Positions 22,601 to 52,367 of a stretch of DNA of 64,000 nucleotides are shown piece after piece. Positions within the stretch are counted from its first letter, which is position 1, and the number at the start of each line of letters is the position of its first letter. Both the position numbers and the translations under genes were made by a program. Under the pieces are notes generated by a model that saw nothing but the letters and a program-made list of their open reading frames with translations, had not been told where the DNA came from and ran no database searches. Source of the stretch: Candidatus Anderseniibacteriota bacterium (lineage in GTDB: Bacteria > Patescibacteriota > Andersenbacteria > UBA10190); contig JAIOOW010000002.1 of NCBI GenBank assembly GCA_021414205.1, positions 215,062 through 279,061 on the forward strand, given 5' to 3'.

Positions 22601-22793
22601 GCATAGCAGCAACACCAGACTCCGTAAACGTCAGACATAAAATATTCCACGGGTCCATTTGCGTTTGCTGCAAAATATTCGCAATACGCATTGCCAATGT
22701 CTGAGTCTTGCCTGTTCCCGGACCCGCAAGGACCATCACGGGCCCCTCTATGGTACTAACGGCGAGTTGTTGGGCGGGGTTGAGATCGGGCAT
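19641..22793 (-). CDS. UvrD/PcrA-family helicase fused to a C-terminal Cas4/AddB-like PD-(D/E)XK Fe-S nuclease domain
   Basis: AGPGTGKT Walker A, UvrD motifs; C-terminal VVDYKTG and four Cys (C...C-x4-C-x2-C). Confidence 0.85.
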   Translation of the reverse strand: MPDLNPAQQLAVSTIEGPVMVLAGPGTGKTQTLAMRIANILQQTQMDPWNILCLTFTESGVAAMRSRLLSIIGTPAYYVRIHTFHSFCNEILQDHPEIFAKGDTWRLVSDAEKVEIFQAIVDMLPEGSPLKPFYAPYLYFSDVTKTIGELKQEDISPEAFVGVLDALEVFFQDIQDNAGAFFGLTPKLRTHEACEQLRVAFQDGFARANVQKSVAYAVDQIFVQYEEQYAASDSVRDQSKARTQLKNAVKKWFEGESKNLNRNRALAEVYKKYEEKLAESGMYDYEDMISRCVAELKKNPDLLADYQEQFQYILVDEYQDTNGGQNEIVELLGSFDDAPNMFVVGDDKQSIYRFQGASLANMLSFYERYKRAITVISLTENYRSQKKVIDASGALISHNAESLKAHIPGIIEQLLPGRQIPEKNIDGITTESQDQEEFVIGQKIRTLIENGAKPEDIAVLYRYNADGNSLLHTLRTMNIPARIEMGENIFDVPAVRQWAVLLEWLVSGRDELLARIIQYTWWNLDVVDTLKIIHYSGRQYISLYSAISSKAHLANAEVGNPEAFLAFSTQLAEFSQECTNMSVMAFLEHVIKETKWMGLVMGKKDAVIELRAMKRFLNEAKELASVHVGYSVQDFVQHLSFLQHHDIDLLTPQWEGGVGAVHLMSAHKAKGLEWLHVFVMKMNDKHWGNPKKRAGVSLPEGLVKYDFVFKNDRNEDERRLFYVALTRAMQTVTLTRSSHSATGKETVPSIFLSEIPKEYISEIKYEETPEMQENRLLETLIAEERGPVSEDAKAYIKSQLGNYVMSVTHLNNYLECTQKFYWRNILQIPSMKTRSLMLGSALHDTLRDVFEMLHQGKPVPDSSMLQQLFEKYLRHEPMSETDFNEILSRGNRAIMGYVDHYKDNLFSNVLTEHNFKKYHVMIGDVPVTGKLDKIEILDEQNKLINVVDYKTGDSDKWYQKVKKDGNYARQMIFYKLLCDNAKQFGYTMKSGEIDFVEPSKKGYVKKKIEITEEDTKNLTETIQRVWQEIQNLSFMDPATGCHKKDCEYCN

Positions 22794-23481
22794 ACAAAAA
22801 CAGTAGCACGCCGATTGCAAAAACTGGAATAGTTAAAAATTGCCCCCGCGTAAGACCGATCGTATAGGGCCATTCTTGCACACGAAGATATTCTAAGAAA
22901 AATCTTGAGACGCTATAGACGACCAAGAAGGTCGCGATAACGAATCCTTGCTTACTTCCTTTTCGAAGCATTACGTAGCATATAATAGCCGTCACAAGCA
23001 TTGCACCAATATCCCAAAACGCATCATAGCCTCTGTATAATTCCTGATTGATAAAATTTCCAAACCTACCGAGCGCCAACCCAATCGCTACCGGAACAGT
23101 GATAATGTCAGCAATGGCAAAAATATCCACCTTTTCTTTTTTTACCCACAACCATATAGCAACAGCGACTCCAATAAATCCTCCGTGAGAGCTCATCCCC
23201 CCAAGCCATATTGCAAATACATACAACGAATGGGAAATAAAAAAACCTGGCTCGTAGAATACTGCATATCCAAGCCTCCCGCCAATCAGTACACCTAACG
23301 CTCCATAGACTATTAACCAAGTATAACTATCACGAGAAATGTTTAAACCTCGCAATCTCCCTAAATAGGGCAACAGGGCGTACGCAATCCAAAATGCAGC
23401 AGCATACATAATGCCATACCAATGGATAGCAAATTGTCCGAACGAAATAGCTATCGTTCGCGATGGGAAAAACTCGATCAT
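22756..23481 (-). CDS. lgt: prolipoprotein diacylglyceryl transferase
   Basis: GGMSSHGG and GRFGNFINQELYG Lgt signatures. Confidence 0.85.
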   Translation of the reverse strand: MIEFFPSRTIAISFGQFAIHWYGIMYAAAFWIAYALLPYLGRLRGLNISRDSYTWLIVYGALGVLIGGRLGYAVFYEPGFFISHSLYVFAIWLGGMSSHGGFIGVAVAIWLWVKKEKVDIFAIADIITVPVAIGLALGRFGNFINQELYRGYDAFWDIGAMLVTAIICYVMLRKGSKQGFVIATFLVVYSVSRFFLEYLRVQEWPYTIGLTRGQFLTIPVFAIGVLLFLYARSQPRPTTRR

Positions 23482-29345: not shown

Positions 29346-30206
29346 ATGTATATCGCATTTGATATCGGCGGAACAAACACGAGAATAGCCATTTCAAAAG
29401 ACGGCAAAACTCTCAACAAGCCCTCTATATACCCTACACCACAAGATTTTGATACCGGGATACAGAAATTCATCGAAACAGTAAAAAACATTTCCGGCAA
29501 TGAGCCTATCACGGCAATTGCCGGAGGAATTCCTGGTCCAATGGATCCTCAAAAAACAATGTTACTTAAAGCGCCAAATTTGAAGGGCTGGAACAACAAG
29601 CCACTAAAAGCTTTGCTTGAAAAAGAATTGCAAACTCAGGTCTTCCTAGAGAACGATACTGCCATGTGGGGTATCGGTGAAGCAACGCGTGGCGCAGGCC
29701 AAGGGTTCGCTATTATGGCTTACGTAACAGTCAGTACCGGTGTTGGCGGAACAAGAATCGTTCATGAAAAAATAGATGCGAGTGCACAAGGATTCGAACC
29801 TGGACACCAAATTATCGACCTCGCAGGCCCTGAGTGCGGATGCGGCGGAAACGGTCATCTGGAAGCATTTATATCTGGTACAGCATTGCAAAAAAAATAC
29901 GGAAAAGCTCCTAAAGAGATTAAAGATGCTCAGGTATGGGACGAAACAGCGAAATACTTGGCAATAGGCCTGCTTAATACAGCGGTATTTTGGTCACCTC
30001 ATTGCATTGTACTAGGAGGGTCAATAATGAAAGATATCGATATAGACCTCGTGCAAACGTATATGCGAGAATACAACCATATCCTACCGACCTTGCCTGC
30101 TATAAAAAAATCAACGCTCGGTGATGAAGGAGGCTTAATTGGGGCCCTGCAGCTTGCGTGCTACACTACTACACATGGATCTGTCGATCGTAGTACCAGC
30201 ATATAA
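29346..30206 (+). CDS. ROK-family sugar kinase (glucokinase-like)
   Basis: DIGGTNTR N-terminus; CGCGGNGHLE zinc motif of the ROK family. Confidence 0.8.
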   Translation: MYIAFDIGGTNTRIAISKDGKTLNKPSIYPTPQDFDTGIQKFIETVKNISGNEPITAIAGGIPGPMDPQKTMLLKAPNLKGWNNKPLKALLEKELQTQVFLENDTAMWGIGEATRGAGQGFAIMAYVTVSTGVGGTRIVHEKIDASAQGFEPGHQIIDLAGPECGCGGNGHLEAFISGTALQKKYGKAPKEIKDAQVWDETAKYLAIGLLNTAVFWSPHCIVLGGSIMKDIDIDLVQTYMREYNHILPTLPAIKKSTLGDEGGLIGALQLACYTTTHGSVDRSTSI

Positions 30207-30963
30207 ACAAGCTCCGACCATCCAACAGGATTTGCGGAGTTTGTCTGCATTTCTAGATTCCCTACACACTTCATACGAACTCATTCTCGTCATTGATGGC
30301 GACATAGACGACACAGCTCTCATTGTAAAACAAGACGACACGCTAGCACACGTACGCATCATACCGATCAAAAAAAATCACGGGAAAGGCTACGCCTTAA
30401 AGCAAGGATTCTTGGCATCCAGCGGCAATATTGTGGGATTCATCGACGCGGGCGGCGATATCGAATTTAATTGCCTTCGCCTCATGTTCGAACTTATGCA
30501 ATTCACCCATGCGGATATTGTCATCGGATCAAAACGGCATCCGTTATCCCAAGTACAATACCCGCTTGTCAGGCACATCTACAGCTTCTCATATCAATTG
30601 CTCAATCGCATGCTCTTTCGCCTCAATATTCGTGATACCCAAGTTGGAGTAAAGTTGTTTCGCAAAGACGCCCTCACGCAAATTCTTCCGCATGTTCAAA
30701 TAAACAAATTTGCATTCGACCTCGAATTGCTCGTGCATGCTCACGCGCTCGGATTCACACACATCATTGAATCCCCCGTTCGCATTACACACAAATTTAA
30801 CAGCACGATCGGTTTCGGCGTAATTATCGAGACCCTCTATGATACGATACGGCTGTATTTTCGAAATGAACCAAGACAGCTCAACGTCAAACCTTCTTCA
30901 GGAATTTCTGTTTCATATTCGCCCAGCTCTTCCCAAACCACAATCAAAGAACACGTACGATAG
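30175..30963 (+). CDS. glycosyltransferase family 2
   Basis: MDLSIVVPAYKQ...VIDGDIDDT...IDAGGD GT2 motifs; the track ORF begins at TTG 30139 but the conserved N-terminus starts at ATG 30175. Confidence 0.75.
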   Translation: MDLSIVVPAYKQAPTIQQDLRSLSAFLDSLHTSYELILVIDGDIDDTALIVKQDDTLAHVRIIPIKKNHGKGYALKQGFLASSGNIVGFIDAGGDIEFNCLRLMFELMQFTHADIVIGSKRHPLSQVQYPLVRHIYSFSYQLLNRMLFRLNIRDTQVGVKLFRKDALTQILPHVQINKFAFDLELLVHAHALGFTHIIESPVRITHKFNSTIGFGVIIETLYDTIRLYFRNEPRQLNVKPSSGISVSYSPSSSQTTIKEHVR

Positions 30964-30974
30964 TATGCGCATAT

Positions 30975-32507
30975 ATGAAACAATTCTTTCCATTCTTGAT
31001 AGTCGCAGTGCTTATTACCCTGCCTTGGTTCCTTCATCCAGGATACCTACTCCTTCTTGACTGGACAGGCATACCCCACCCCCACATCAGCCTCGACCCC
31101 ACAGGCGGAATAGCGGGTACTCCTATTCAAATTGCCTGGACGATGCTTAGCACCGTTATCGAATCATCGTTCGCACAAAAAATACTTGTATTAGCCATGC
31201 TCATGCTTGCAGGAGGTGCAACATATCGCCTCACATATTTTTTACTATCAAATAAGCTCGCCTCGATTATTGCCGGGATATTTATGGTGACAAATGCATT
31301 CGTATTTAATCGATTGCAAATGGGGCATATATACCTTTTATACGCCTATGCACTTACGCCATACGCAATCTATCTTGTGCTTTGTTTTTTGCAGCAGCCG
31401 TCTAGTAAAAAAGCATTGCAAGCAGGGATCGGATGCAGCGCAGTTATCCTACTCAGTATTCATCATACTATATTGCTCCCCATACTTATCATTCTATTTG
31501 CTTGGCATACACAAAAAATACAACACTACTCTCGTACTCAATACATAGCGTTACTTGGTCCGTATATTGCAACGCTGCTCGCAATACTAGCAGTCGCATA
31601 CATAAACCCGGCGTCGCAACTTGCAACTATTTCCCTCAAAGACATTGCAGTATTCGCGCCGCGCGCGCAGTGCACGCCGCAACTTGCCACGGATACCGTA
31701 TTTTTATCATCTCAATGGAGAAACCCTCACGCAGTATCTTTGCCGTGCTCAAATAAAATAATCTTTTATGCATCTAACATATTTTTATTAGGCGTTATGT
31801 TAATAGGTGCATGGAACAATAAAAAACTGTTCATTGGCGCAATAATACTTGTCCTACTTACTGACATTCCGTTTATTCCTGCAATGCGCGATAGCGCAAA
31901 ATACTTGGCAGACCTTGCGCTCATCGAAGCAGCCTTACTTGCATACGGCATAGTGCATCTCCAGAAAAAATATGGCTCAGTGTCATCCATTTTAATTCTC
32001 CTATGTACACTACTTGCAGGATCTTCAATCTATTGGGGGCTATCAAACACCATCACTCCAAAAATTTATCCGCAAAGCTGGTATGCGTTCAATCAAACGT
32101 TAGCGAAACTTCCTGAAAAACCTCGCGTTCTTTTTTTGCCATGGCATTTATATATGCCGTTCGATTTTACAAATCAGGCGACTATTGCCGATCCGGCGAA
32201 GCTCTTTTTTACTAATGGAAGCATTATTCAAGGAGATAACTTGGAAATGCGGCAAGGAGACGCCTTTATTGTAACCGAATCGACGTCTCCAGAATCTCAA
32301 GAAATCAATCACGCACTTGCACAAATTAGTACGCCAGATTTTTCGAGCTCATTCTTAAAAATGTTAAAAGAACAGCATATTAGCTATATTGCCTTAGCCC
32401 ATGGTTCGCCCGAGGAAGCATTATATAAAAATACATTTAAAAAACTCCCATATGTATCATTATTAGTTGATTCTCCCGGGCTTACTATTTGGCAATTTGG
32501 AGAATAA
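30975..32507 (+). CDS. polytopic membrane protein, putative GT-C-fold glycosyltransferase
   Basis: About 12 TM helices, early extracytoplasmic LLLDWTG motif, C-terminal soluble domain. Confidence 0.5.
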   Translation: MKQFFPFLIVAVLITLPWFLHPGYLLLLDWTGIPHPHISLDPTGGIAGTPIQIAWTMLSTVIESSFAQKILVLAMLMLAGGATYRLTYFLLSNKLASIIAGIFMVTNAFVFNRLQMGHIYLLYAYALTPYAIYLVLCFLQQPSSKKALQAGIGCSAVILLSIHHTILLPILIILFAWHTQKIQHYSRTQYIALLGPYIATLLAILAVAYINPASQLATISLKDIAVFAPRAQCTPQLATDTVFLSSQWRNPHAVSLPCSNKIIFYASNIFLLGVMLIGAWNNKKLFIGAIILVLLTDIPFIPAMRDSAKYLADLALIEAALLAYGIVHLQKKYGSVSSILILLCTLLAGSSIYWGLSNTITPKIYPQSWYAFNQTLAKLPEKPRVLFLPWHLYMPFDFTNQATIADPAKLFFTNGSIIQGDNLEMRQGDAFIVTESTSPESQEINHALAQISTPDFSSSFLKMLKEQHISYIALAHGSPEEALYKNTFKKLPYVSLLVDSPGLTIWQFGE

Positions 32508-32531: not shown

Positions 32532-33653
32532 ATGCATAGCATTTCCGGAAAACGAATACTATTCTTGAATTGGAAGGATGTTCTCAACCCCGAATCCGGA
32601 GGTGCGGAAGTATTAACAGATGCTCTTGCAAGCCATCTTGCAGAAACAAACGAGGTTTTTTTTATCACCTCATCATTTCCGAACGCAAAACAGAAACAAG
32701 TACATAATAATTACACGATATTGCGCAAAGGCACCACGCTCACGTGCATACTGTATGCATTTTTTACATATAAAAAATTATCTACAGAAAAAAAATTCGA
32801 TCTTATTATTGACCAAGCCCATGGCATCCCATTTTTTTCGATACTATACCCTCATCGCCCAAAAATCCTCATACTTATTCATGAAGTTGCCGGGGAATTA
32901 TGGTCAAGCGTTCTTCCACACACTATCGGCAAAATAGTAGATACAATATGGCTGCGGCTCTACAAAAATCAGCAATTCATTACAGTCTCTAATTCCACAA
33001 AACAAGAACTGACAAAACACCATATTATTGAAAAAAATATTTCTATTGTTCCGAATTTTACAGCCATTTCATTACCAGAAATTCCTCAAAAAGCAGAGCA
33101 TCCGACTCTCCTCGTCCTTGGCAGGATAGCTCCGGTCAAACGTATCGAGCACGCAATACGAGCATTTCAAATTGTAAAAGAAACTGTTCCGAATATTCAT
33201 CTTGTTATTATTGGAAAAAGGGAAAAGAAATACGATTCATATTATCAGGATATCAATACATCCATTCAAAACGATAATAAAATCACGATTATTACAAATG
33301 CAGACGAGGAGGAAAAACTGCATTGGCTTAAAGAGTCGCACATCCTCCTCATGCCTTCTAAAAAAGAAGGGTATGGCATCGCAATACTTGAAGCTGCTGC
33401 ATGCGGAACGCCTGCGATCGGATACAATGTTCCAGGAACGCGCGATGCTATCATTGATAATAAAACCGGATTAATTGCGGACCAAGAAAACCCGAAATCA
33501 CTAGCTGCTTGCATTGAAAAAATACTGACTAATCTGGGGACGTTCAATCAACTGCAAAAAGAAGGATTTACCAATGCCCGCCAAAAGCAGAAAAGGCATA
33601 CAATTTCAACATGGGACGCAATACTGAAACAAATAATCCAGATTACGCCATGA
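32532..33653 (+). CDS. glycosyltransferase family 4
   Basis: EGYGIAILEAAACGTPAIGYNVPG GT4 C-domain. Confidence 0.8.
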   Translation: MHSISGKRILFLNWKDVLNPESGGAEVLTDALASHLAETNEVFFITSSFPNAKQKQVHNNYTILRKGTTLTCILYAFFTYKKLSTEKKFDLIIDQAHGIPFFSILYPHRPKILILIHEVAGELWSSVLPHTIGKIVDTIWLRLYKNQQFITVSNSTKQELTKHHIIEKNISIVPNFTAISLPEIPQKAEHPTLLVLGRIAPVKRIEHAIRAFQIVKETVPNIHLVIIGKREKKYDSYYQDINTSIQNDNKITIITNADEEEKLHWLKESHILLMPSKKEGYGIAILEAAACGTPAIGYNVPGTRDAIIDNKTGLIADQENPKSLAACIEKILTNLGTFNQLQKEGFTNARQKQKRHTISTWDAILKQIIQITP

Positions 33654-34489
33654 GCATAGCGCATTTTTTCCTAAGAATTTTCCGCTCTCTCAAGCTTGAT
33701 ATGCAGTGGATCACAACACAAAACATTCCAGAAAAGTGGAAATTTCTGAAAACAAAATATATGTTGATAGCCATGCCAAGCTTGTTTTGGAATAACAAGA
33801 TTAATGCATTCGGAATACCGGGCTGGGGACGCACGACATACATTGCAAAACCCGACAGAATTGAAAATATCCAAAGCATCTTCATCGACCACGCCCATCT
33901 GCAAAAAATAGCCCCGAAGAATGGAATAGTAGTAGACGTAGGAGCTAATATAGGAGAGTTCGCGCTTTTTGCACATACAGTATTATCTCCAAAAAAAATA
34001 TATTCATTTGAGCCAGTCCCAAGATCTTTCGAATTACTAGAGGAAAATAATAATGATTTTCATTTCAATGGAGCAATTTGCAATGAAAAAAAGATGCTAA
34101 TTCACATTAATGAACAGTCTGGAATGTCTTCAAAATTCAAACTGCCCTCAACAATCGGAACAACAGTGGCAATGTGCAAATCCCTTGACGATATCCCAGA
34201 ACTTCAAGCATTACCAACAATCGACCTTTTAAAAATAGATGTTGAGGGGATGGAGCACGATGTTATTGCATCGAGCCCAACCACAGTAAAAAAATCCAAA
34301 TACCTTGCCGTAGAAACAGCCCTAAAGAGAGACGCTTCTCAAGATGGGTTAGCAACGCTATCCCTCTTAAAGCAGCTACAACCGGAACTACGCCTTATAT
34401 ATATTGGGCATATTATTACATACGCCGATACTGGCGAACAAGCGGCTGTAGATATGGTGTTTAAAAATATTTCTATAAAAAAAATATGA
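33650..34489 (+). CDS. FkbM-family SAM-dependent methyltransferase
   Basis: VVDVGANIGEF...FEPVP motifs (Methyltransf_21); ATGA overlap with the upstream GT4. Confidence 0.7.
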   Translation: MSIAHFFLRIFRSLKLDMQWITTQNIPEKWKFLKTKYMLIAMPSLFWNNKINAFGIPGWGRTTYIAKPDRIENIQSIFIDHAHLQKIAPKNGIVVDVGANIGEFALFAHTVLSPKKIYSFEPVPRSFELLEENNNDFHFNGAICNEKKMLIHINEQSGMSSKFKLPSTIGTTVAMCKSLDDIPELQALPTIDLLKIDVEGMEHDVIASSPTTVKKSKYLAVETALKRDASQDGLATLSLLKQLQPELRLIYIGHIITYADTGEQAAVDMVFKNISIKKI

Positions 34490-35319
34490 AGACCACTCCT
34501 CTCGTCTCAATTATCATTCCTACAAAAAATTCTGCGAAAACACTTCTTGCGTGCATTACATCTATTAAAAGACAAACATATTCGAATATTGAATACATCG
34601 TCGTAGACAATTATTCCTTAGATGCGACGCAAGATATTGCAAAAAATAACAAAGCACGCCTGATGATAACCGGCAACGAGCGCTCAGCTCAAAGAAATGC
34701 CGGTGCAAATCATGCTCATGGAGAATTTCTATTGTTCATAGACTCGGATATGGAATTATTACCCGAGGTTGTAGATGAATGTGTAAACATAATGCAGGAA
34801 CATAAAAATATACAAGCAATTGTTATTCCAGAGGATTCCTTTGGAACAACCCTTTGGGCAGCATGCAAGAATTTCGAACGGTCAACCTACGCAAACAGCT
34901 CATGGCTTCATGGAGCCCGTTTTTTTCGCTCATCGGCGTTTACAAGCATCTCAGGCTTCCAAGAAGATATCATTGGCGCTGAAGATTTTGACATTCACAC
35001 AAGGACAGTGAACGCATTCGGATTATCCGGGATCGGATATTCATCAATTGCCATACGGCATAACGAAGGAGCACTAACACTCACACACTTATTGAAGAAA
35101 AAATATTATTACGGATCCACGCTCAAAGCATATGCAAATAATCAGCGAAATAAGCATATGCTGTACAAGCAGGCGAATCCAATCACCCGCATACAGCTAT
35201 TTTTCCAGAATCCAACGTTCCTATTTCAACATCCAATCATATTCACTGCGACATGCATCATGAAAACGCTTGAATTCTGTGCACTTGGATTAGGATATCT
35301 CATGAAATCTGCAGTATAA
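34486..35319 (+). CDS. glycosyltransferase family 2
   Basis: VSIIIPTKNSAKTL...VVDNYS.D.T...DSDM GT2 motifs. Confidence 0.8.
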   Translation: MKTTPLVSIIIPTKNSAKTLLACITSIKRQTYSNIEYIVVDNYSLDATQDIAKNNKARLMITGNERSAQRNAGANHAHGEFLLFIDSDMELLPEVVDECVNIMQEHKNIQAIVIPEDSFGTTLWAACKNFERSTYANSSWLHGARFFRSSAFTSISGFQEDIIGAEDFDIHTRTVNAFGLSGIGYSSIAIRHNEGALTLTHLLKKKYYYGSTLKAYANNQRNKHMLYKQANPITRIQLFFQNPTFLFQHPIIFTATCIMKTLEFCALGLGYLMKSAV

Positions 35320-35337: not shown

Positions 35338-38300
35338 ATGTTCTCTATCGCGTTCATGAAAAAATTTGGGGGTCTTTTTTTACTGATTGCACTATCCGTA
35401 ATTGCGCATTGGCAATGGCTTGTTTTGCCGGGTATTTTCACGTCTGGCGACTATTGGTACGTACCTAACCAAGTATTTTCCGAATCATTAACTCTTCCCA
35501 AAATTCTCGATGCAAGCGGCTCTCTGACCACGGGCATATCTCAGCCTACGTTTGTACTGCTCTATGTTATTGGCGGCCTGCTTACAAAAATCCACCTCGG
35601 ATTTGCAGCATGGGAAAGAATTGTTTTCCTTTGGCCAATTGCAATTTTAGCGCCTATTCCGATATACCTGTTTTTACTTAAAACATTGCGATACCCACCT
35701 GGCGCATTTGCAGGTTCGCTAATCTACCTATTCAACACCTATATTCTTGCACGAGAAATGATGCATTTGCACATTGCAATCGTATATTTCCTAGCGCCCC
35801 TACTGTTTATTGCTGTACGAGATCTACTTCATAGGCAGAACATAAAATCTATCTTATCGTTTATTGCCATAACTGGAGTCTGTTCAATTTTCGAAATACG
35901 CATTTTATACATACTGACGTTCATGCTTATTGCATATAGTCTATACCTGCTCCTTACTCGGAAAATTATACTCTCATGGAAAATGCTTCGCGTCATATTG
36001 TGTGCGATTATTCCCGTAGCATTACTCCAATCATACTGGCTCATACCTTTTATATTTGCGAACTCTTCATTAGGATACGGATCGATAGTGAGCAGAGGAC
36101 TCTTTAGAAGCTATGACCACATAGGCGAAGCAATGACTTTGTATGATCCATTCTGGTCAGGTAATCAACTTACTGACTTTATTCCGCAACAAATCCCGCG
36201 ATGGGAATATATCATTCCAATCATCGCATTTTTATGGCTCATCGTAAGGTTACGGGCGAAAAAAAATTCATTTTTCTGGTTCTGGAGCCTCATCGCTATT
36301 ATCGGAATTTTTCTCGTAAAACAAGAAAATAATCCGTTCCCCCAAGCATACTCTTGGCTCTATTACCATTTTCCTGGGTTTAATTTTTTTCGAGAATCAT
36401 CAAAGTTAAAAATTATTGTCGCCCTCGCACTCTCAGCTTTAAGTGCCGGCTCGTTATTAGTCATACAAAGTAAATTTAAAAAAGTTGCCAATGCTCTCAT
36501 ACTGGGCTTAAGCGCAGTCATGCTTATTAATATTATCCCGCTTTCAACTGGGGCCATTGAAGCAATGACAGTATCAAATAGCATAGACAATCAATTCCTA
36601 GCAACCAATAAAATACTGGAATCAGATGCGGAATTTGGAAGAGTGTTGTGGGTACCATCAACTGAACGGTTTACCACTGCTTCGCAAACTCATCCGCGCC
36701 TATCGCTTGCCGCACTCACCGGAGCAGACTGGCTTCCTTTCGTACAAGACCAAGCAGATCCGTTTTCCATAACAGCACAGCCCGTCTTTAAAGCGCTGCT
36801 AAATTTTTCAAGCATTCGCTACATCGGCGAACCGGCAGACCAGATTGATCATGTATACCAACTATACAATGCTTCAAAAACTGATCTTGGAAAGAACATA
36901 GCAGGCATAAACAATCTTAAGCCAGTACAAGAATCACCTCTCGATATGCCACTTTGGAAAAATCCAGACGCAAAGCCTCACGCATATGTAGCAGACAATC
37001 TCGTAGCTGTGCACGGAGCTCCTCGAGACTTTTCCGGCCTTGACCCCAGTATCGCTACTGGATTTGTATTTCAATCGAATGTCCAAGATCAAACATTCCA
37101 GCATATCGATAGCACAATAGCTACGAATTCGGAATATATACCATTTTCTCCGGACTCCATCTCTATCGAACAAGGCCAGGTGCATAGCAACGTAAAAATC
37201 CCAGACTCTGGAACGTTTCAAACCGTAACGCGTGATGATAAAAAAGATTCTATAGCACCTATTCTTCTTGCAATAACGGATCAAACCCTTTCCATTATCG
37301 CAAGAATGCCTACAGGCGACATACCCCTTGCAACAACTCCGAATACGCATCAAGACTACGCAATTACAATCAACGGGGTACATTATTTCTATACATTCAC
37401 TGATCAGTCACAAACAATACAGCTTGGGATTACTCGCCTTCATCAATCAAAAAATTCGATCTCATTTCTAGCAAAAATCAATTCCGACCCTCTTGTTAAA
37501 GATGCGTCTTTTGAAGCAGGAACATGGGGCAGCGCAGGAGATTGCAATAATTCGGACAACACAACAAAAGAAGCGAACGGGATCTCCGCATCGCAATCGC
37601 CTGTCGCAACGGACGGAGCAAGCTCACTAAACCTAACAGCGAAAAACCATATCGCATGCACAGGGATCACTATTTCATCAGCAGCCAAACCTGCTACATA
37701 TTTTGGATCCATCGACTACCAGCAAAAAGCAGGGTCTGCTGGATACGTAAAGATTTTTCAATCAGACACAATGAAGAACCTCTCCTTTGTACAATTCAAC
37801 CAAAAGCAGAATTGGCAACACGCGGATTTCTCCTTTGATAGTGACGGCACCCACAATTCCACTCTATACCTCTACCAGCCTGCTGGGGATGGATTGTTTG
37901 ATAACATACACCTGGACGCGTATCAACTCATGTCCACAGCATCAGCAGATATCCCTGACAGCACCGAACGCATGACAACTCGACCGTATCAAACGTCGGA
38001 CACAACAATAAGTGATTCTGCAATCACCGGCTCAAACGTATTGGCGCAAACTACTTTTTCGCCAGACATGTCCGTAAGCGCGAGTGATTGCAATAATGCG
38101 GATAGCACCTCCGTTGAAAAGAACGGGATCAAAGCATCTATCGCAGAAACTGCCGACCACATCCAAGCGCTCTCAATTCAGGCAGCAAAACATATTGCAT
38201 GCGTAACACTGCCACTCCACGACTTTAATCCCACGTACGACCATCTCGTATCAATACGCTATCGAACAATTCTAGGAACCGATGCCCATGCTACGTTCTA

Positions 38301-38943
38301 CCCGAATGACAACCCGTCGCAAGCGACAATCCAGCTTCCGGAAACAAATAGTCAATGGCAAACAAAGAATATAATAATCAATGGGAGCAATATCCACCCC
38401 GATGCAAGTCTTATCCTCTATGTACCAGCTGACAGCGGCGAATCCCAAACCCAATTTGCATCCATTGCCGTCACAAGAATACCCATCCTTCCGTCAAGAT
38501 TCATCCAAACGGCAAACCCTCCATTATCATCCCTAGACGCCAAAACGGAAGAAATTGACCCGACTACTACCGTACTGCACGTGAGCGATATTGGATCATC
38601 TCCAAGAATGCTCATACTATCAAATCGCTTCGACCCCGGGTGGAAGGTATTCGTTAGGCCGCAAGGATCTAAAAAGCTACCAATATGGGAACGAATACTC
38701 TTTAAGACGCCAGGCCAAGAAATTTCAAAAGATTCTCACATACAGGCAAATGCATTAATGAATGGCTGGATTCTCGACCCCCAAGAAGTTCAATCAAAAC
38801 TCGGAACAACTCAAAATATTGATATTGTTATGGAATATTGGCCTCAGCGATATATGAACATCGGAGTATTATTGTCATTAGCTACTCTTGTGTTGTATAC
38901 AATAGGGATGATTATTGCATTCCTGCGCCATGGCAAAATATAA
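35338..38943 (+). CDS. giant (1201 aa) membrane protein: N-terminal polytopic domain, large extracytoplasmic region with an internal tandem repeat, C-terminal TM
   Basis: About 12 N-terminal TM helices with an early SGDYWY motif; two homologous modules (GDCNNSDNTTKEANGIS...KNHIAC and SDCNNADSTSVEKNGIK...KHIAC); final TM helix. Confidence 0.6.
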   Translation: MFSIAFMKKFGGLFLLIALSVIAHWQWLVLPGIFTSGDYWYVPNQVFSESLTLPKILDASGSLTTGISQPTFVLLYVIGGLLTKIHLGFAAWERIVFLWPIAILAPIPIYLFLLKTLRYPPGAFAGSLIYLFNTYILAREMMHLHIAIVYFLAPLLFIAVRDLLHRQNIKSILSFIAITGVCSIFEIRILYILTFMLIAYSLYLLLTRKIILSWKMLRVILCAIIPVALLQSYWLIPFIFANSSLGYGSIVSRGLFRSYDHIGEAMTLYDPFWSGNQLTDFIPQQIPRWEYIIPIIAFLWLIVRLRAKKNSFFWFWSLIAIIGIFLVKQENNPFPQAYSWLYYHFPGFNFFRESSKLKIIVALALSALSAGSLLVIQSKFKKVANALILGLSAVMLINIIPLSTGAIEAMTVSNSIDNQFLATNKILESDAEFGRVLWVPSTERFTTASQTHPRLSLAALTGADWLPFVQDQADPFSITAQPVFKALLNFSSIRYIGEPADQIDHVYQLYNASKTDLGKNIAGINNLKPVQESPLDMPLWKNPDAKPHAYVADNLVAVHGAPRDFSGLDPSIATGFVFQSNVQDQTFQHIDSTIATNSEYIPFSPDSISIEQGQVHSNVKIPDSGTFQTVTRDDKKDSIAPILLAITDQTLSIIARMPTGDIPLATTPNTHQDYAITINGVHYFYTFTDQSQTIQLGITRLHQSKNSISFLAKINSDPLVKDASFEAGTWGSAGDCNNSDNTTKEANGISASQSPVATDGASSLNLTAKNHIACTGITISSAAKPATYFGSIDYQQKAGSAGYVKIFQSDTMKNLSFVQFNQKQNWQHADFSFDSDGTHNSTLYLYQPAGDGLFDNIHLDAYQLMSTASADIPDSTERMTTRPYQTSDTTISDSAITGSNVLAQTTFSPDMSVSASDCNNADSTSVEKNGIKASIAETADHIQALSIQAAKHIACVTLPLHDFNPTYDHLVSIRYRTILGTDAHATFYPNDNPSQATIQLPETNSQWQTKNIIINGSNIHPDASLILYVPADSGESQTQFASIAVTRIPILPSRFIQTANPPLSSLDAKTEEIDPTTTVLHVSDIGSSPRMLILSNRFDPGWKVFVRPQGSKKLPIWERILFKTPGQEISKDSHIQANALMNGWILDPQEVQSKLGTTQNIDIVMEYWPQRYMNIGVLLSLATLVLYTIGMIIAFLRHGKI

Positions 38944-40042
38944 CAGCATTTATTTTGTAACCCCGGAACCGATAAAAAACATGGGGAATTTAAGGAAGTA
39001 CCTGATAGAAAACACACAACACTTTACCACGTTTCACTTTCCCAATGGCTATTCGAATGCTCAGAGCCACCTAGAGCAGTATGTTAATGGGGAAAATACT
39101 ATTGTAACGAGCCTCCCTAAAATACCTGTCAATAATAAGCTTATAAAGTTACTTTCACACTATATCTATTTCCTAACCATACTCTTGTTCACCGTTAAAA
39201 GCGGCAGCATTGTAATTGTAGACAATCCAATATTCTGCATATTTTATAGCGTATTTTCTTACATCAAAAATCTGCATTTTATCCTTATTATTGGAGACCA
39301 CTATATCGAGAAGAACGGCTTTATGAAGATCTATCACATGTTACTGAATTTTTATAATAGGCACCTTCCATACGTCATATACTTAAGCCCTCCTATTCAG
39401 GCAATATATAGTCCGCTGCGCACAAGCAGTTTTCATCGCAGCCAATTGTCGCTAGGAATCGCAGACTTATGCATCGCAAATCGTCAAGACGTACTGGAAG
39501 AAAAGCTCCATATAGGTTTTATGGGGAGCATTCGACACGGACAAGGACTTCAAACATTACTTAGATATGTCCATCAAACAACAACCCCACTTCATCTAGA
39601 TATTATAGGAGATGGGTATGAATTAAATTTCTATAAGGATCTAGTACAGGATCTTAATATCGAGGATAAAGTAACATTTTATGGGTTTGCGCCCAATCGC
39701 GAAGAAATTGCTTCCAAGTGGCATATTGCATTTGCACTGTATGATTATGATCCGAGCAACGTATCATTGTATTGCGAGCCAACAAAAATTAAGGACTATT
39801 TGTCATATGGCCTGCCAGTCATTACTACAAAAACAACCTATTTTCATAAAGAAATTGCCTCATTCAGGGCAGGAGAAATCGTAGAAGAAAATTCTCAGGA
39901 TATTGATCGCGCAGTCGCTTCAATCGTAAACGCGTATTCGTCCTATAAACAAGGAGTACAAAATATAATTAACGCATACGAGTACCGTTCACATTACGAC
40001 AAGCAATTAGCATTTTTACAAATATATGAGCATACGGCATAG
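38930..40042 (+). CDS. GT-B glycosyltransferase (GT4-like), in a locally AT-rich region
   Basis: C-terminal GFMGSIRHGQG...IIGDG...FYGF...EPTKIKDYLSYGLPVITT; local GC visibly lower than the flanks. Confidence 0.65.
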   Translation: MAKYNSIYFVTPEPIKNMGNLRKYLIENTQHFTTFHFPNGYSNAQSHLEQYVNGENTIVTSLPKIPVNNKLIKLLSHYIYFLTILLFTVKSGSIVIVDNPIFCIFYSVFSYIKNLHFILIIGDHYIEKNGFMKIYHMLLNFYNRHLPYVIYLSPPIQAIYSPLRTSSFHRSQLSLGIADLCIANRQDVLEEKLHIGFMGSIRHGQGLQTLLRYVHQTTTPLHLDIIGDGYELNFYKDLVQDLNIEDKVTFYGFAPNREEIASKWHIAFALYDYDPSNVSLYCEPTKIKDYLSYGLPVITTKTTYFHKEIASFRAGEIVEENSQDIDRAVASIVNAYSSYKQGVQNIINAYEYRSHYDKQLAFLQIYEHTA

Positions 40043-40760
40043 TTGGGCAGTTACGGTTCCAATGGCAAACGAAGAGAAAGATTTTCAGCACTTTGCCGAG
40101 GAAGTTACAAAGGTTCTTGACGATATTGGTTCTGGAACAGTCTACCATGTTATCAATAATTTTTCGCATGACCGAACATATGAACTTTCACAAGAATTAT
40201 CTTTAAAGGATTCGCGCTTCATAACAATATTCGCTCCGGAAAATCGCCACTTACCGGATGCGTACATAAGCGGTCTTCGTGCCGCATTCGATGCAGGAAA
40301 TAAATACATTATCGAAATGGATGCCGGACTATCGCACGATCCTCATCAGCTTCCCGACTTCCTTAGGGCGCTCGAAGCCGGGCACCAGTGCGTGTTTGGC
40401 AGCAGAATGGTTCCAGGAGGATCAATTACGCATTCACCAATCAATCGCAGACTTCTTTCTCGTGCAGGCACGCTGCTTTCTAATACAATGCTAGGAACAA
40501 AGTTGGCAGACATGACAAGCGGATATCAAGGATTTCATCGAGACGTGGTGGAGAATATCATCAACTATCCGCTACAATCAACAGCTCATTTTTATCAAAC
40601 CGAATTGCGATACCTTCTGCGCAATTATAATACATGCGAAATACCTATTTCGTATCAATCCCCTTCCCCCCGCGTTTCAAAACGAGCAATTCAAAATGCG
40701 TACCAAACATTGCTGCACTATTTCTTTCTGCGGCTATCTGGTCGAGCAAAGGAGCTGTAA
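40026..40760 (+). CDS. glycosyltransferase family 2, polyprenyl-monophosphomannose (Ppm/DPM) synthase-like
   Basis: WAVTVPMANEE (PAYNE-like), EMDAGLSHDP (DAD-SHDP-like) motifs. Confidence 0.75.
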   Translation: MSIRHSWAVTVPMANEEKDFQHFAEEVTKVLDDIGSGTVYHVINNFSHDRTYELSQELSLKDSRFITIFAPENRHLPDAYISGLRAAFDAGNKYIIEMDAGLSHDPHQLPDFLRALEAGHQCVFGSRMVPGGSITHSPINRRLLSRAGTLLSNTMLGTKLADMTSGYQGFHRDVVENIINYPLQSTAHFYQTELRYLLRNYNTCEIPISYQSPSPRVSKRAIQNAYQTLLHYFFLRLSGRAKEL

Positions 40761-43045
40761 CATGCAATCGAGATTATCAGTATTGTTATAAAAAGACCGA
40801 TAAAAAACCCGGGCGCCTTATACTGAAATACGATATCGTAACTACCCTCCGATATATCTATCGCAGGTCGATTCGATTCGATGATTGCAGGCTTGCCATT
40901 TGCCATCCAGCCTTTCGCATAATTTTCATTTAGCACAACGCGCGTAGCAATCGGCGTATCAACATGAACCTTTACCGTATTGTAACTCCAGAAAACTATG
41001 GTTACTTTTGCTCGAGAATCTAGAGCCGAAACGGCGCCCGTATCCCCTTCATCATAAATAGTCCGCACTGCAGACTGCGGGCCGAGCACTGAGCAATACG
41101 CCTCCGTTCCATAGCCTGCAAAATACGCATCTGTCGTTCTTGTCGTTCGAGACCCTTGCCCAGCATCATCATATCGCTCAGGGGTATAGGCAATAGGATA
41201 TGGAGCTGGAGATATTAATGGAATAACATGAGGCAACACGAATGCCTGCTCAGAAATTTGATACGTCAAACTAATCAAGTCTATGGCAATAAAACCGATT
41301 ACGCACACTTGAATAACGTTGCCGTATTTTGGCATAAAATTGCGCAATCGATCCATTCCATAGCTCGCTAAAAGTGCAATCGGAATTACTGCAAACACAA
41401 TCACGCGAGATAAATTAGACCTCGGCAAAAACTTAATATGATCCAGGATCGGCGCCAAAAACGGTCCAAGTGTAGAGAGCGCAATTGCCAATATCGTCGC
41501 AATACTAAGAGCTCGGATAATGCGATTCTGGAAAAAGCGCGCACTGCCAATTAACGCCAATACCAATGCGCCATATCCTATATACGCGCCATACTCGTGC
41601 CACCCACTGCTTTGATTCAAAATTACATACGTATCATGTAAATATCGACCAAAAAATATATCCCCCAGCCATGGGAGCGTGTACGAGGACGGCACATACA
41701 CCCTATCCGTAAATTGCTTCAACCAATATATAACAGGAATTAATTTAAACGACACGAGGCCGAGCCCCCATAATCCCGACTTCAAGGCAGTTAAAAATGC
41801 ATCTTTTTTTCGAGAAGCAAGCAAGGTCAAAACAATAAACGCGATCGTGGTATATATAAGCAAATACACTCCTCCGCCCAAAAATGTAAGTGCTAAAAAT
41901 ATTCCAAGTATTATTGGGCGCATTTTTTTCTGATACACGCAAAGCCAAGCCCAAAATATCCACGGAATCCACATGACGGTAAGAATATTCACATGCCCCT
42001 CGACGTTTTCAATTAAATTAACTCCACCGAATGAAACAATAAGAGCTGCAAGCAGTCCTGCCTCAACAGATCGCCCAAGCTTGCGCGCCAACACGAGCAT
42101 ACCAATCGCACCGACTATAACGGATAGCACCACATCAAGCCGTAACCCCCACGAAGAACCAAATAGTAATACCAATAAAAACGTTGGTGTAAATACTGGA
42201 AATTCCGGATCCCCTAATCCTGCTGTACCCCCGCAAGGATACGGATCCCAGAACGGAAAGGTATGCAATTGCAAAATTGCTTTGCGATACGAATCGTGAA
42301 GAGGTACATACAAATCCCAATCAGCTATTCCCAAGTCTCCGGTTGGAAATAAATACCCCAAATTTCCAAGTGGTGCAAGAAAAACGATACCTACTATAGC
42401 CCCTATCATTTTCTGCTTACTTGTTTTTAAAAGTGAAATTAAGGCAATACCGATCATTGCAATTGCGCCAACAATAACTCCTTGTCGAGCACCAAAGTCT
42501 GTAGGAACACGCCTCATAAACGTCAAAGAAATAATTGCAGACTGTGGCTGTCCATTTATTGACAACTTTTGAGCAGCGGATAGATTTTTATCTCGCTCCA
42601 TCATAAGAAGCGACAATGGATCCCCGTGCAGGAACGAAATGTCGAGCAAATACGCCCCCTCATGACTAACCCTCCACCAACTCGTATCCATCTGAATACG
42701 AGAAACGTTCGCACTTGAAAGATAAGAAACAGTATCGGCATCGCCCCGAGCAACGATACTGCCTTTGGGGTCCGTAATAACTACCCGCACTACCCTCCCT
42801 GATAACGTTGAGGTATTAGAAAATACAGCAACTCCTGAGTACACACCTTCCGTCAAATGAACTTTTTGCTGTAAATGATCACCCGCATGAAGAGAAATTT
42901 CTACTGGCGTATCAAAATATTTCACAATACGAATACGCTCCGTAGACAATGGAACAATATATACAATCAGCACCGCAACAAGAGCAATAGACGTAACTAA
43001 AATAAGTCGTCCAATTCCGGAACCAATAACTTGACGAATACCCAT
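40718..43045 (-). CDS. large (775 aa) polytopic membrane protein, putative GT-C-fold glycosyltransferase
   Basis: N-terminal anchor plus extracytoplasmic domain, then more than 10 TM helices with IADWDLYVPLHDSYR and FPFWDPYPCGG motifs, C-terminal beta-domain and final TM. Confidence 0.6.
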   Translation of the reverse strand: MGIRQVIGSGIGRLILVTSIALVAVLIVYIVPLSTERIRIVKYFDTPVEISLHAGDHLQQKVHLTEGVYSGVAVFSNTSTLSGRVVRVVITDPKGSIVARGDADTVSYLSSANVSRIQMDTSWWRVSHEGAYLLDISFLHGDPLSLLMMERDKNLSAAQKLSINGQPQSAIISLTFMRRVPTDFGARQGVIVGAIAMIGIALISLLKTSKQKMIGAIVGIVFLAPLGNLGYLFPTGDLGIADWDLYVPLHDSYRKAILQLHTFPFWDPYPCGGTAGLGDPEFPVFTPTFLLVLLFGSSWGLRLDVVLSVIVGAIGMLVLARKLGRSVEAGLLAALIVSFGGVNLIENVEGHVNILTVMWIPWIFWAWLCVYQKKMRPIILGIFLALTFLGGGVYLLIYTTIAFIVLTLLASRKKDAFLTALKSGLWGLGLVSFKLIPVIYWLKQFTDRVYVPSSYTLPWLGDIFFGRYLHDTYVILNQSSGWHEYGAYIGYGALVLALIGSARFFQNRIIRALSIATILAIALSTLGPFLAPILDHIKFLPRSNLSRVIVFAVIPIALLASYGMDRLRNFMPKYGNVIQVCVIGFIAIDLISLTYQISEQAFVLPHVIPLISPAPYPIAYTPERYDDAGQGSRTTRTTDAYFAGYGTEAYCSVLGPQSAVRTIYDEGDTGAVSALDSRAKVTIVFWSYNTVKVHVDTPIATRVVLNENYAKGWMANGKPAIIESNRPAIDISEGSYDIVFQYKAPGFFIGLFITILIISIACYSSFARPDSRRKK

Positions 43046-45488: not shown

Positions 45489-47183
45489 ATGAACCCAATC
45501 CTTCCCCTTGAAGCGTTTACCCCTCCGTACGACGCCGACTCCTATAATGAAGAACAAAAATGGAACTTATCCCCATTTTTCACAAACCTCACATCGTCCG
45601 TATACGTCCCCCTCATATCCTCTCCTGAAGTTATCGGCGCCTTGTGCTCCAGAACAAGCAGGGCAGCAGACGATTTGCGCTTAATTTTCTTAAAAGAATA
45701 TGTTGAGCCGTTTTTGCAAGACAACCCATCAGATACAGAACAAGCAAAGTATGGCAAAACGTTAAAAGAGTTTATCGATTTTTTACATACCCATCCCACA
45801 GAATCTATTTTCTCGAATCCAAAAGCTCGATCGTTTTATGCAAAATGGCTCGCACAATACGGAGACGATTCTATCGCTCAAATGGCCGGCATGCACGTGG
45901 TGTTTTCCAGCTTGTCGCAGATTGCAATCAAGCAATTCGAAGATCAGCGAATTGGCTTAGCCCCGATTGAAAAGTCTACGCGCTACGTAGATTATTCACA
46001 AAAAGTACATGGCGGATATCGCTACTACACCGACCCAACCTTAAAACAGCTCGGATTAGAAGAAGAGTATACATCAGCAATGAATACGCTATTTGATACG
46101 TATATTGATTTGATTCCGAAATTATCAGCCTATTTAGCGCAACAATTTCCAGATGAAACAAAAAGTGTTGTAGAGAAAAAAGCATTCGACACTGTTCGAG
46201 GATTGCTGCCGATGGCAACATTGTCTCAAGTGGCCTTTTTCGGAAATGGCCAAGCATTTGAATATTTAGTAAGCAGGTCCGCCCGACACAGTTTGGGCGA
46301 AATTCGATGGGCTACAGAGCAAACGTATCAAGAATTATACAAAGTAACACCATCATTTTTGCGTAGAGTAAAAGACCCTGCAAGCCAAGATAAAGTAGAG
46401 GCATATCAAGATTACCTCTCTCAAAAAACTGCACGCATTGCGAAATTTGTTCCAGAAACTCTCACAAAGAACCATGATCACGATACTGCTGTATCGCTTG
46501 TAGAATACGACGTTGATGGCGAAGCGAAAATCATTGCCGGCATGTTATACAATGCAGACAGTAACACTGCCTCTTGGGAAGATACCCTTGCTGCCGTACA
46601 AGCAATGTCAGAGCAAGAGAAGCGGGAAATTCTTGCTGCGTATTTAGGCAATAGAACTCAGCGCTGGCAAAAAGTTGGCCGCGCATTCGAAAACACATAC
46701 CTGCGATATGACATCACGATCGACATTGGCGCATGGAGAGATTTGCATCGCCATCGTATGCTCACTCAGCAGCGCCAGCTCTTTACGGTAGCCCACGGCC
46801 ACGAAACGCCCCAGGAGCTCATCGACGCGGGACTAGATCAACCCTATCGAGATGCGCTACACAAAGCAGCAGCTATCTATAGAAAAATTGCGGAACATGA
46901 CCCGATATTAGCCCAATACGCAGTCCCTATGGCATACAAAGTCCGTTTCATGCAATGGACTAACGTGCGCGAATGCTTTTGGGAAATGGAACTTCGAACT
47001 ATTCCAGAAGGCCACCCTGGATACCGCCATATCGAGCAAGAAAAATTTAGACTATTCGAAAAAGTATATCCGCTTATCGCGCAATACATGCGAGTAAACA
47101 TGGGAGAATACGACTTTGCCCGCCGCGGCCAGGAAGAAAAAATTCAAGAAAAATTAAAAGCGTTAGAAAAACTTTCTGCGTGA
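45489..47183 (+). CDS. thyX: flavin-dependent thymidylate synthase ThyX, long (564 aa) two-domain form
   Basis: C-terminal half has WRDLHRHRMLTQQRQ (ThyX RHR motif); N-terminal half is ThyX-like with a degenerate motif. Confidence 0.85.
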   Translation: MNPILPLEAFTPPYDADSYNEEQKWNLSPFFTNLTSSVYVPLISSPEVIGALCSRTSRAADDLRLIFLKEYVEPFLQDNPSDTEQAKYGKTLKEFIDFLHTHPTESIFSNPKARSFYAKWLAQYGDDSIAQMAGMHVVFSSLSQIAIKQFEDQRIGLAPIEKSTRYVDYSQKVHGGYRYYTDPTLKQLGLEEEYTSAMNTLFDTYIDLIPKLSAYLAQQFPDETKSVVEKKAFDTVRGLLPMATLSQVAFFGNGQAFEYLVSRSARHSLGEIRWATEQTYQELYKVTPSFLRRVKDPASQDKVEAYQDYLSQKTARIAKFVPETLTKNHDHDTAVSLVEYDVDGEAKIIAGMLYNADSNTASWEDTLAAVQAMSEQEKREILAAYLGNRTQRWQKVGRAFENTYLRYDITIDIGAWRDLHRHRMLTQQRQLFTVAHGHETPQELIDAGLDQPYRDALHKAAAIYRKIAEHDPILAQYAVPMAYKVRFMQWTNVRECFWEMELRTIPEGHPGYRHIEQEKFRLFEKVYPLIAQYMRVNMGEYDFARRGQEEKIQEKLKALEKLSA

Positions 47184-51319: not shown

Positions 51320-51733
51320 ATGCATAAAGGTTTTGTACTAGTAGCATTTTTGGGCCTCGTAGTTGCGGGATACCTGTTTATTACCTACACATCCCCCATC
51401 CCTATTACCTGCGTTGCAGGAGAAGGCTGCAAAACAGTCCAAGCAAGCCATTTCTCTTCATTCTTCGGCATTCCAACGCCAGCCTATGGCATTATCTACT
51501 ATCTTGCTCTTGGCATTTTTGGCGCACTATGGCAAAAAAATTCCTCGAAGCTGTTTAATCTCGCCCTGACAATACTTACCTCTAGCGGACTTGCGATATC
51601 TATATTTTTATCCTATCTCGAGGCGTTTGTGGTGCATGCATGGTGCTCCTGGTGCGTTACCAGCGCAATCCTTACTGTAGTTGCATTCATTATAAATTGG
51701 CGTGTAGTATCAAACCATGACACTCACATCTGA
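51320..51733 (+). CDS. vitamin K epoxide reductase (VKOR)-family membrane protein
   Basis: Loop cysteines CVAGEGC and CSWC active site in the last TM; 4-5 TM. Confidence 0.75.
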   Translation: MHKGFVLVAFLGLVVAGYLFITYTSPIPITCVAGEGCKTVQASHFSSFFGIPTPAYGIIYYLALGIFGALWQKNSSKLFNLALTILTSSGLAISIFLSYLEAFVVHAWCSWCVTSAILTVVAFIINWRVVSNHDTHI

Positions 51734-52367
51734 TGCAAAATTCGTAATAGGTATCTTAGTTGCCACATGCCTCGTTATCGGCGTTGGGGCATGGGTTACC
51801 CAGATTAAATCAAAACCGGCAGCAGCAAATGTTGTTCCTGCAAACTTAGTAGATCGCCTCGCTCGATCGGACTCAGCATTTCAAGGACCTGCAGACGCTA
51901 AGGTTACCGTGGTTGAATTCGGCGACTTCCAGTGCCCTGCATGCGGATCACTCTACCCGGCGTTCAAACAAGCAATGCAGGACAATAAAGATAAATCAGT
52001 TCGATTTGTATTTAGAAACTATCCGCTCCCTCAACACCAATTTGCACCACTAGCAGCAGAAGCGTCATTATACGCACTTGCTCAAAATAAATTCTGGGAA
52101 TTTCATGATATTTTATTCGAGCATCAAGATAACTTGACCCAAGCTGATTTAGAAAACTATGCAAAACAAATAGGGTTCAATGCGGATGATTTTAAAAATG
52201 CACTAGATAATCACACGTATAAAGGGATCGTTGATCGCGATAAGGCGGATGGCGTAGCACTTGGACTGGATCACACCCCTACGGTATACATCAACGACAC
52301 TGAATACACAGGCAATTATTCAGCAACCGAACTTGAATCCGCCATAGACGCCGCGCTTACAAAATAA
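51717..52367 (+). CDS. DsbA-family thioredoxin-like oxidoreductase (membrane-anchored)
   Basis: FGDFQCPACG (CPAC) thioredoxin active site; overlaps the VKOR gene by 17 nt. Confidence 0.75.
   Translation: MTLTSDAKFVIGILVATCLVIGVGAWVTQIKSKPAAANVVPANLVDRLARSDSAFQGPADAKVTVVEFGDFQCPACGSLYPAFKQAMQDNKDKSVRFVFRNYPLPQHQFAPLAAEASLYALAQNKFWEFHDILFEHQDNLTQADLENYAKQIGFNADDFKNALDNHTYKGIVDRDKADGVALGLDHTPTVYINDTEYTGNYSATELESAIDAALTK

Follow-up and report, generated by a model that had tools for sequence, protein, structure and literature searches.

A tandem pair of putative carbohydrate-binding modules on an AftD-like membrane protein of a Patescibacteria bacterium

Carbohydrate-binding modules (CBMs) on glycosyltransferases of the GT-C type are well known, and so are tandem pairs of CBM4/9/22 domains. 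The mycobacterial cell-wall enzyme AftD is a GT-C enzyme whose three periplasmic CBMs bind the long arabinan acceptor; D41 and K361 are among its essential residues and W272 is invariant (10.1101/2019.12.22.885152). Likewise, the CBMs found on the GT-C enzymes Emb, AftD and GT136 bind the acceptor glycan (PMC11127046). Here we analyzed an architectural counterpart of AftD, a membrane protein of 1201 amino acids (aa) encoded by an open reading frame (ORF) at 35338..38943 on the plus strand of a 64,000-nucleotide stretch from Candidatus Anderseniibacteriota bacterium (contig JAIOOW010000002.1, positions 215,062 to 279,061), which belongs to the candidate phyla radiation (CPR, Patescibacteria). 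The whole stretch is called the window below, and all nucleotide positions refer to it. To our knowledge, the envelopes and glycopolymers of CPR bacteria are almost unstudied.

The ectodomain of this protein contains a repeated unit. Our preferred reading, to which we assign a probability of about 0.7, is that both copies are complete domains of the CBM4/9/16/22 superfamily, which form an ancient, fixed tandem pair and serve an AftD-like GT-C glycosyltransferase of the cell envelope. The gene stands for a large family (about 1000 representative clusters as judged by a profile of the unit). What is new is this large and uncharacterised family itself, for whose membrane domain no Pfam model exists, together with the obligate pair and a near-universal pair of cysteines; in other respects this is a domain duplication of the ordinary kind in an architecture of known type.

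Homology and fold of the two units

A preliminary description of the window, made from the letters alone, had reported two homologous modules of about 50 residues in this protein. Both peptides quoted there are present in the 1201-aa ORF at approximately the positions given, and their similarity is highly significant; the length, however, holds only for the best-conserved cores, since the actual units span about 150 aa each. Unit R1 comprises aa 715-862 (37480..37923; all parts of this gene are on the plus strand) with its core at aa 734-777 (37537..37668, GDCNN...HIACTGI), and unit R2 comprises aa 897-1045 (38026..38472) with its core at aa 916-958 (38083..38211, SDCNN...HIACVTL), resulting in a period of about 182 aa. 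The linker between them (aa 863-896, 37924..38025) is poorly conserved in the alignment and was modelled with lower confidence, the predicted local distance difference test (pLDDT) being 65-70.

As S, T, N and A abound in the core segments, their likeness could be a product of chance in low-complexity, Ser/Thr/Asn-rich sequence without any homology, an outcome that the preliminary description had itself named as fatal to the repeat. The similarity stays significant when composition is taken into account: the local score of the core segments is 95 versus 23.5 ± 4.7 for shuffled sequences (z = 15), that of the whole domains is 155 versus 33 ± 6 (z = 20), and even the stretch after the second Cys alone yields z = 6.8, its score being matched by 0 of 1000 shuffles. 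Composition-adjusted BLASTP of aa 699-852 against aa 881-1034 gave 26% identity over 155 aa (E 4e-15). Furthermore, the two units are conserved in 159 proteins and both are predicted to fold as the same beta-sandwich. Shuffles, BLASTP and the census of copy number thus refute the chance explanation, which retains practically no probability.

Homology had also been claimed at the nucleotide level, and there some likeness does exist, but it is marginal: blastn of the repeat DNA returned one high-scoring segment pair of 62 nt with 72.6% identity (37531-37592 versus 38077-38138). Identical residues of R1 and R2 are encoded by the same codon in 23 of 39 cases, compared with 16.7 expected from codon usage alone. 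Consequently, the likeness in DNA originates mostly from amino-acid conservation, and a recent duplication was rejected; the strings GATTGCAATAAT and AACGGGATC shared by both copies are mostly a reflection of conserved DCNN and NGI residues.

A carbohydrate-binding module had been put forward in the preliminary description as one possible identity of the repeat, with structure prediction as a way to check it. The AlphaFold model of aa 690-1062 based on 16 orthologues (pLDDT 87.4) unveiled two CBM-like beta-sandwiches, each a beta-jelly-roll of the roughly 130-150 residues typical of the CBM_4_9 superfamily. In a Foldseek comparison with the PDB the two-unit model matched the tandem CBM22-1-CBM22-2 of Xyn10C best (E 1e-8), followed by CBM-type domains of GH101, Vip3/Cry and CBM16, and a profile of 32 units from the 16 orthologues matched the CBM4 structure 1gui among the PDB sequences (E 0.008). 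The superfamily is also reached through relatives which are all matched by the unit profile (family members are designated by P-numbers). Four of them exceed the cutoff of the Pfam family CBM_4_9 (PF02018): P0043 with 55.8 bits in two stretches, P0034 with 35.8 bits, P0176 with 31.6 bits and P0039 with 26.7 bits; the family stays just under the cutoff in R2 of P0016 (25.2 versus 25.9 bits) while covering profile positions 2-131 of 136, and below it in R1 of P0011 (E 0.037). The homologous units of relatives thereby include full-length PF02018 matches. The units are divergent members of the CBM4/9/16/22 superfamily and would probably bind sugar.

In profile numbering, conservation across both copies is highest at D21, C22, N23, D26, H57, A59, C60 and W113. 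Due to this joint conservation, a functional or ligand site would most plausibly be formed by the DCNxD loop, the HxAC strand and the Trp. Outside this cluster the copies differ. R1 keeps the family motifs SFE.G.W, DCNN.D, H.AC, W and FDN; R2 in the clade of the window protein (P0001-P0008) keeps DCNN.D, H.AC and W and has lost the end motifs FE.G.W and (Y/F)DN, which are retained by R1 and most units of the family. In the corresponding columns R1 shows F, E, G, W and D, N, and R2 shows S, D, S and A, S. These strand motifs often form a structural Ca2+ site in CBMs of the CBM_4_9 type. With respect to this loss R1 and R2 are probably not equivalent, and they may have diverged in function.

The motifs lost in R2 also bear on the idea that the units have the fold of a CBM and do not bind sugar, being instead scaffold, protein-binding or adhesion domains, for example in the contact of an episymbiotic CPR bacterium with host cells or envelope proteins. 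Among the structural matches the fold is found in non-sugar contexts as well (MAM domains, toxin domains, reelin and phage fibres), and for one of the AftD CBMs weak or absent binding has been suggested (10.1101/2019.12.22.885152). We consider this explanation unlikely.

Copy number, history and cysteine pair

Searching 1.84 billion representatives with the unit profile yielded 1004 proteins at E <= 1e-3, 264 of them at E <= 1e-30. The census reported here covers 161 domain-bearing proteins, consisting of 150 listed matches of the 1004 and the closer orthologues. The window protein has its close relatives in CPR bacteria, and some members of the family are from other sources. All 16 orthologues carry both units; the 15 full-length orthologues of the 1201-aa protein range from 1193 to 1244 aa.

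Evidently, the number of units is practically fixed: exactly two were counted in 159 of the 161 proteins, at a start-to-start spacing of 179-203 aa (median 188). The exceptions are P0043 (1422 aa), in which a third, degenerate unit is located between the two CBM units, and P0071 (2606 aa), which joins two full-length paralogues head to tail. A neighbour-joining tree grouped the R1 units of P0001-P0014 in one clade and their R2 units in another, and within these proteins the two units are 21-26% identical; the duplication is therefore older than this group of orthologues. Across the family the identity of R1 and R2 varies between 21% and 100% (median 36.5%), and 19 of the 318 compared units have the partner unit of their own protein as nearest relative, indicating that the pair was homogenised or re-duplicated in some lineages.

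These data speak to another proposal of the preliminary description, namely that the repeat might be a ruler module, together with its question whether orthologues vary in repeat number. Such a module would be a recent or labile tandem duplication of varying copy number which acts as a spacer or ruler for active-site distance or product length. The wide range of R1-R2 identity and the few lineages with homogenised or re-duplicated copies, such as P0039 with its identical units or P0043 with its additional one, would be in line with it. Against it stand the 26% identity of the copies in the window protein, the marginal similarity of their DNA and the separate clades of R1 and R2. Furthermore, the fixed number and near-constant spacing of the units argue against a variable ruler. 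A fixed geometric role is possible, but no variation in length was seen that would back a tunable ruler. This explanation is thus very improbable.

Several relatives deserve mention in their own right. The two CBM units of P0039 (1240 aa) are 100% identical over about 150 aa, which could be due to a very recent re-duplication, to gene conversion or to an artefact of assembly, and an extra Cys pair (ICLWQ...NRCA) occurs in P0039 and again in P0071. P0176 (1600 aa) carries a propeller resembling BNR/Sortilin-Vps10 inserted before the CBM pair.

The conserved Cys pair (DCNN...HIAC) that had been noticed in each copy is borne out by the family. C736 (codon 37543-37545) and C774 (codon 37657-37659) in the R1 core as well as C918 (codon 38089-38091) and C955 (codon 38200-38202) in the R2 core are invariant in the 16 orthologues, and these four are the only cysteines of the whole ectodomain. 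Family-wide, 316 of 318 units carry Cys at profile columns 22 and 60, and units with just one of the two were not observed (0 cases); the sole exception is P0161 (1225 aa), where both Cys are lost in both units. According to the predicted secondary structure the first Cys of each unit would follow a short bridge and the second would lie within a strand.

The preliminary description had related the cysteines to DsbA and VKOR genes in the window, and both genes were found: VKOR (137 aa; 51320-51733, plus strand) matches PF07884 with E 6.7e-23, and DsbA (216 aa; 51717-52367, plus strand) matches the DsbA-like families PF13462 and PF01323. Paired and co-conserved extracytoplasmic cysteines hence coincide with the presence of an oxidising machinery. 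Because the cysteines are co-conserved, are the only ones in the ectodomain and are accompanied by VKOR/DsbA in the window, one disulfide per unit (Cys736-Cys774 and Cys918-Cys955) is likely and constitutes the most economical reading, predicted as it is from the sequence. The conserved pair would then explain one need for a VKOR/DsbA system in such small genomes.

The VKOR and DsbA genes overlap by 17 nt and together provide this CPR genome with a compact module for disulfide formation. Adjoining them on the minus strand is a gene (52371-54494) for a 707-aa fusion of a VTT/DedA domain, a PAP2 phosphatase and an LssY_C domain, whose product may have a role in polyprenyl-phosphate recycling.

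The membrane domain and its gene neighbourhood

The full-length AlphaFold (AF2) model, obtained from 31 sequences, has a pLDDT of 88.5 and a predicted template modelling score (pTM) of 0.79. It starts with helices up to about aa 410, which together with the hydropathy segments and the invariant columns define an N-terminal polytopic membrane domain (aa 1 to ~410, 35338..36567). According to the secondary structure of the model this is followed by a soluble alpha/beta region near the membrane and then a beta-rich domain (aa ~411-714, 36568..37479). After R1, the linker and R2 the chain ends with a C-terminal beta domain (aa ~1052-1167) and a single membrane helix (aa ~1170-1199; together 38491..38943). 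Short homologues of about 690 aa, one of them from Methanococcoides, share aa 1 to ~560 and ~1065-1201 with the window protein and are devoid of everything in between; the CBM pair is therefore part of an insert of about 500 aa in a simpler ancestral architecture. Two minus-strand ORFs in this part of the window (37443-37712 and 36934-37383) are regarded as spurious, since 15 orthologues conserve the plus-strand frame.

That the protein might be a GT-C enzyme had already been supposed in the preliminary description, and the model agrees with it, exhibiting a predicted N-terminal polytopic membrane domain of GT-C fold combined with a soluble extracytoplasmic domain. In a Foldseek search with the full-length model, AftD (6wby/6wbx) ranked first with E 1.5e-17 over the whole length (about 1430 columns); after AftD and matches to the CBMs only, STT3 (E 8.6e-6) and PglB (E 5.6e-5) followed. 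The invariant residues of the membrane domain are D38 (codon 35449-35451), R188, W234, W273, R352 and K356, and among these D38, K356 and W273 are invariant across the 31 sequences, archaeal and short homologues included. D38 belongs to a GDxW motif after the first hydrophobic segment and thereby represents the conserved acidic residue expected of a GT-C enzyme close to the beginning of its first extracytoplasmic loop; the loop which carries D38 probably faces outward. Two family members are named 'arabinofuranan 3-O-arabinosyltransferase' in IMG. One of them, P0039, aligns with the ectodomain of the window protein (E 8e-33) and also at a loop of the pattern K..N.PF...Y.WL..H.PGF..FRE..K (E 0.001).

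Several observations weigh against our reading of a CBM pair on an AftD-like enzyme. The window protein matches no Pfam family at E <= 1 and does not reach the PF02018 gathering score of 25.9 bits, and its units are linked to CBM_4_9 by their fold and through relatives. R2 may, in view of its lost end motifs, be a degenerate or non-binding copy, as is supposed for CBM2 of AftD. Profiles of the full-length protein and of the membrane domain found no solved GT-C enzyme among the PDB sequences, and the window protein gave no match to GT-C_AftD (PF11847) or any other GT-C family of Pfam. PF11847 was detected in only 2 of 16 short homologues, with E 0.015, and the match of aa 121-444 to the NCBIfam family MmpA (NF053599) has E 2.5e-5 and 23 bits, so that the link by sequence is weak.

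The latter match leads to a further explanation, in which the host protein is an inactive, MmpA-like scaffold or lipid-delivery protein and the domain pair binds a glycolipid or organises a complex. MmpA is the only curated family matching the membrane domain, reaching E 1.5e-8 to 5e-9 in relatives, and it is known as a trehalose-lipid delivery protein without a recognised catalytic motif (PMC8698533). The scores of 23-35 bits, however, are far from the family cutoff of 210 bits, and MmpA itself is reported to be partly homologous to the N-terminus of AftD (PMC8698533). Moreover, D38, R352 and K356 are invariant in positions resembling those of the essential AftD residues D41 and K361 (10.1101/2019.12.22.885152), and a DPMS-like GT2 gene is located nearby. 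We therefore judge a scaffold or lipid-delivery protein to be quite unlikely and retain the AftD-like glycosyltransferase.

The gene is embedded in a glycan-biosynthesis cluster. Two genes downstream of it a GT2 gene (40026-40760, plus strand; Pfam Glycos_transf_2) encodes a protein whose best match among PDB sequences is DPMS (5mlz, E 2.1e-16), followed by ArnC. Enzymes of the DPMS/ArnC type charge polyprenyl phosphate for GT-C enzymes. From sequence and context this GT2 is predicted to be a candidate maker of the lipid-linked sugar donor. Upstream, the cluster contains a GT2 (30139-30963), a 510-aa ORF without Pfam match (30975-32507, plus strand), a GT4 (32532-33653), an FkbM methyltransferase (33611-34489) and, directly before the 1201-aa gene, another GT2 (34486-35319); a GT4 (38915-40042) comes after it. 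The product of the 510-aa ORF could be a polymerase, a ligase or a flippase-type membrane protein, and in locus L003 a 524-aa ORF, likewise without match, is found at the corresponding position after a GT2. The window revealed no dedicated small flippase.

Converging on the DPMS-like GT2 with an overlap of 43 nt is the gene of a 775-aa polytopic membrane protein (40718-43045, minus strand), which has no Pfam or NCBIfam match and whose orthologue in Andersenbacteria faintly resembles YfhO (GT-C). The 775-aa protein is probably another GT-C enzyme, using the lipid-linked donor in common with the 1201-aa protein. A Mur ligase gene is listed after it in the cluster. Three related genomic loci were found, all from CPR bacteria: one labelled Saccharibacteria (85% identity) and two from Andersenbacteria (50% and 38%). 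In Candidatus Andersenbacteria the gene order is preserved: GT4, FkbM and GT2 lie upstream, a YfhO-like protein and a Mur ligase downstream; in the locus of a more distant relative genes of the teichoic-acid type are present as well.

Elsewhere in the window we noted two unusual genes. On the minus strand, 19641-22820 encodes a 1059-aa helicase of the UvrD/PcrA type that ends in a Cas4-like nuclease region (PD-(D/E)xK) and thereby has the architecture of AddA-like proteins. On the plus strand, 45489-47183 encodes an unusually long ThyX homologue of 564 aa with two Thy1 stretches; its orthologue in Andersenbacteria has 577 aa.

Proposed function and comparison with known systems

On this basis we propose that the enzyme would take its sugar from a polyprenyl-phosphate carrier supplied by the neighbouring DPMS-like GT2 and transfer it, outside the membrane, onto a polymeric glycan of the cell envelope. 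The pair would be positioned in the extracytoplasmic insert between the catalytic membrane domain and the C-terminal beta domain with its anchor. Thereby, in analogy to the CBMs of AftD, EmbC and GT136, both CBM-like domains would hold the polymer and offer it to the active site, each being stapled by a disulfide presumably made by VKOR/DsbA, which would tie the DCNxD loop to the HxAC strand.

A more far-reaching version, which we offer only tentatively and regard as doubtful, is that the DCNxD-loop/HxAC-strand/Trp cluster with its near-universal disulfide might define a new CBM subfamily with its own ligand site, occurring as an obligate pair on a Pfam-less, AftD-like GT-C family of at least 1000 clusters at 50% identity. 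It might then be chiefly this family that builds or branches an envelope glycopolymer of CPR bacteria on the extracytoplasmic side, and R2 might differ from R1 in specificity. The segment of aa 715-1045 would be a soluble, expressible fragment and a possible probe for the acceptor glycan.

Among the known systems AftD (6w98/6wbx/6wby; PF11847) follows the same plan: an N-terminal GT-C membrane domain, beta-sandwich CBMs outside and a C-terminal re-entry into the membrane. D38, K356 and W273 of the window protein occur at positions similar to those of D41, K361 and W272 in AftD. The differences are nevertheless considerable. No significant match exists between the two sequences. The window protein has two homologous CBM4/9-type units with a Cys pair, whereas the three CBMs of AftD are missed by the unit profile, and it ends in one helix (aa ~1170-1199), whereas AftD has five C-terminal helices and a bundle binding acyl carrier protein (ACP). 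Finally, the host is a CPR bacterium without arabinogalactan, and therefore donor and acceptor must differ from those of AftD.

The GT-C enzymes EmbA/B/C and the GT136 ribofuranosyltransferase ORF12 resemble the proposed system in combining a GT-C domain, an acceptor-binding CBM and a polyprenyl-phosphate sugar made by a GT2 (PMC11127046). In contrast to the window protein, these enzymes of three-component periplasmic glycosylation systems have a single C-terminal CBM of another type, and neither Emb nor GT136 appeared as a sequence match or among the top-ranking structural matches of the window protein, which were AftD, STT3 and PglB. MmpA (NCgl2761/Rv0226c, NF053599), though the only curated family weakly matching the membrane domain, comprises proteins of about 474-543 aa which have no CBM pair and are restricted to Corynebacterineae, and the 23 bits obtained here compare with a cutoff of 210.

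The closest counterparts of the units themselves are the CBM4/9/16/22 domains (PF02018; for example 1gui, the CBM4 of Lam16A, and 2zew, a CBM16), whose N..N.SFE.G.W and YDN motifs are also found in the consensus of the present family, and the tandem CBM22-1-CBM22-2 arrangement of Paenibacillus Xyn10C (4xup) resembles the pair described here. Unlike these domains, the units of the window protein lie below Pfam detection and carry a family-specific, near-universal Cys pair with the DCNxD / HxAC signature, and they are attached to a predicted membrane glycosyltransferase instead of a secreted glycoside hydrolase.

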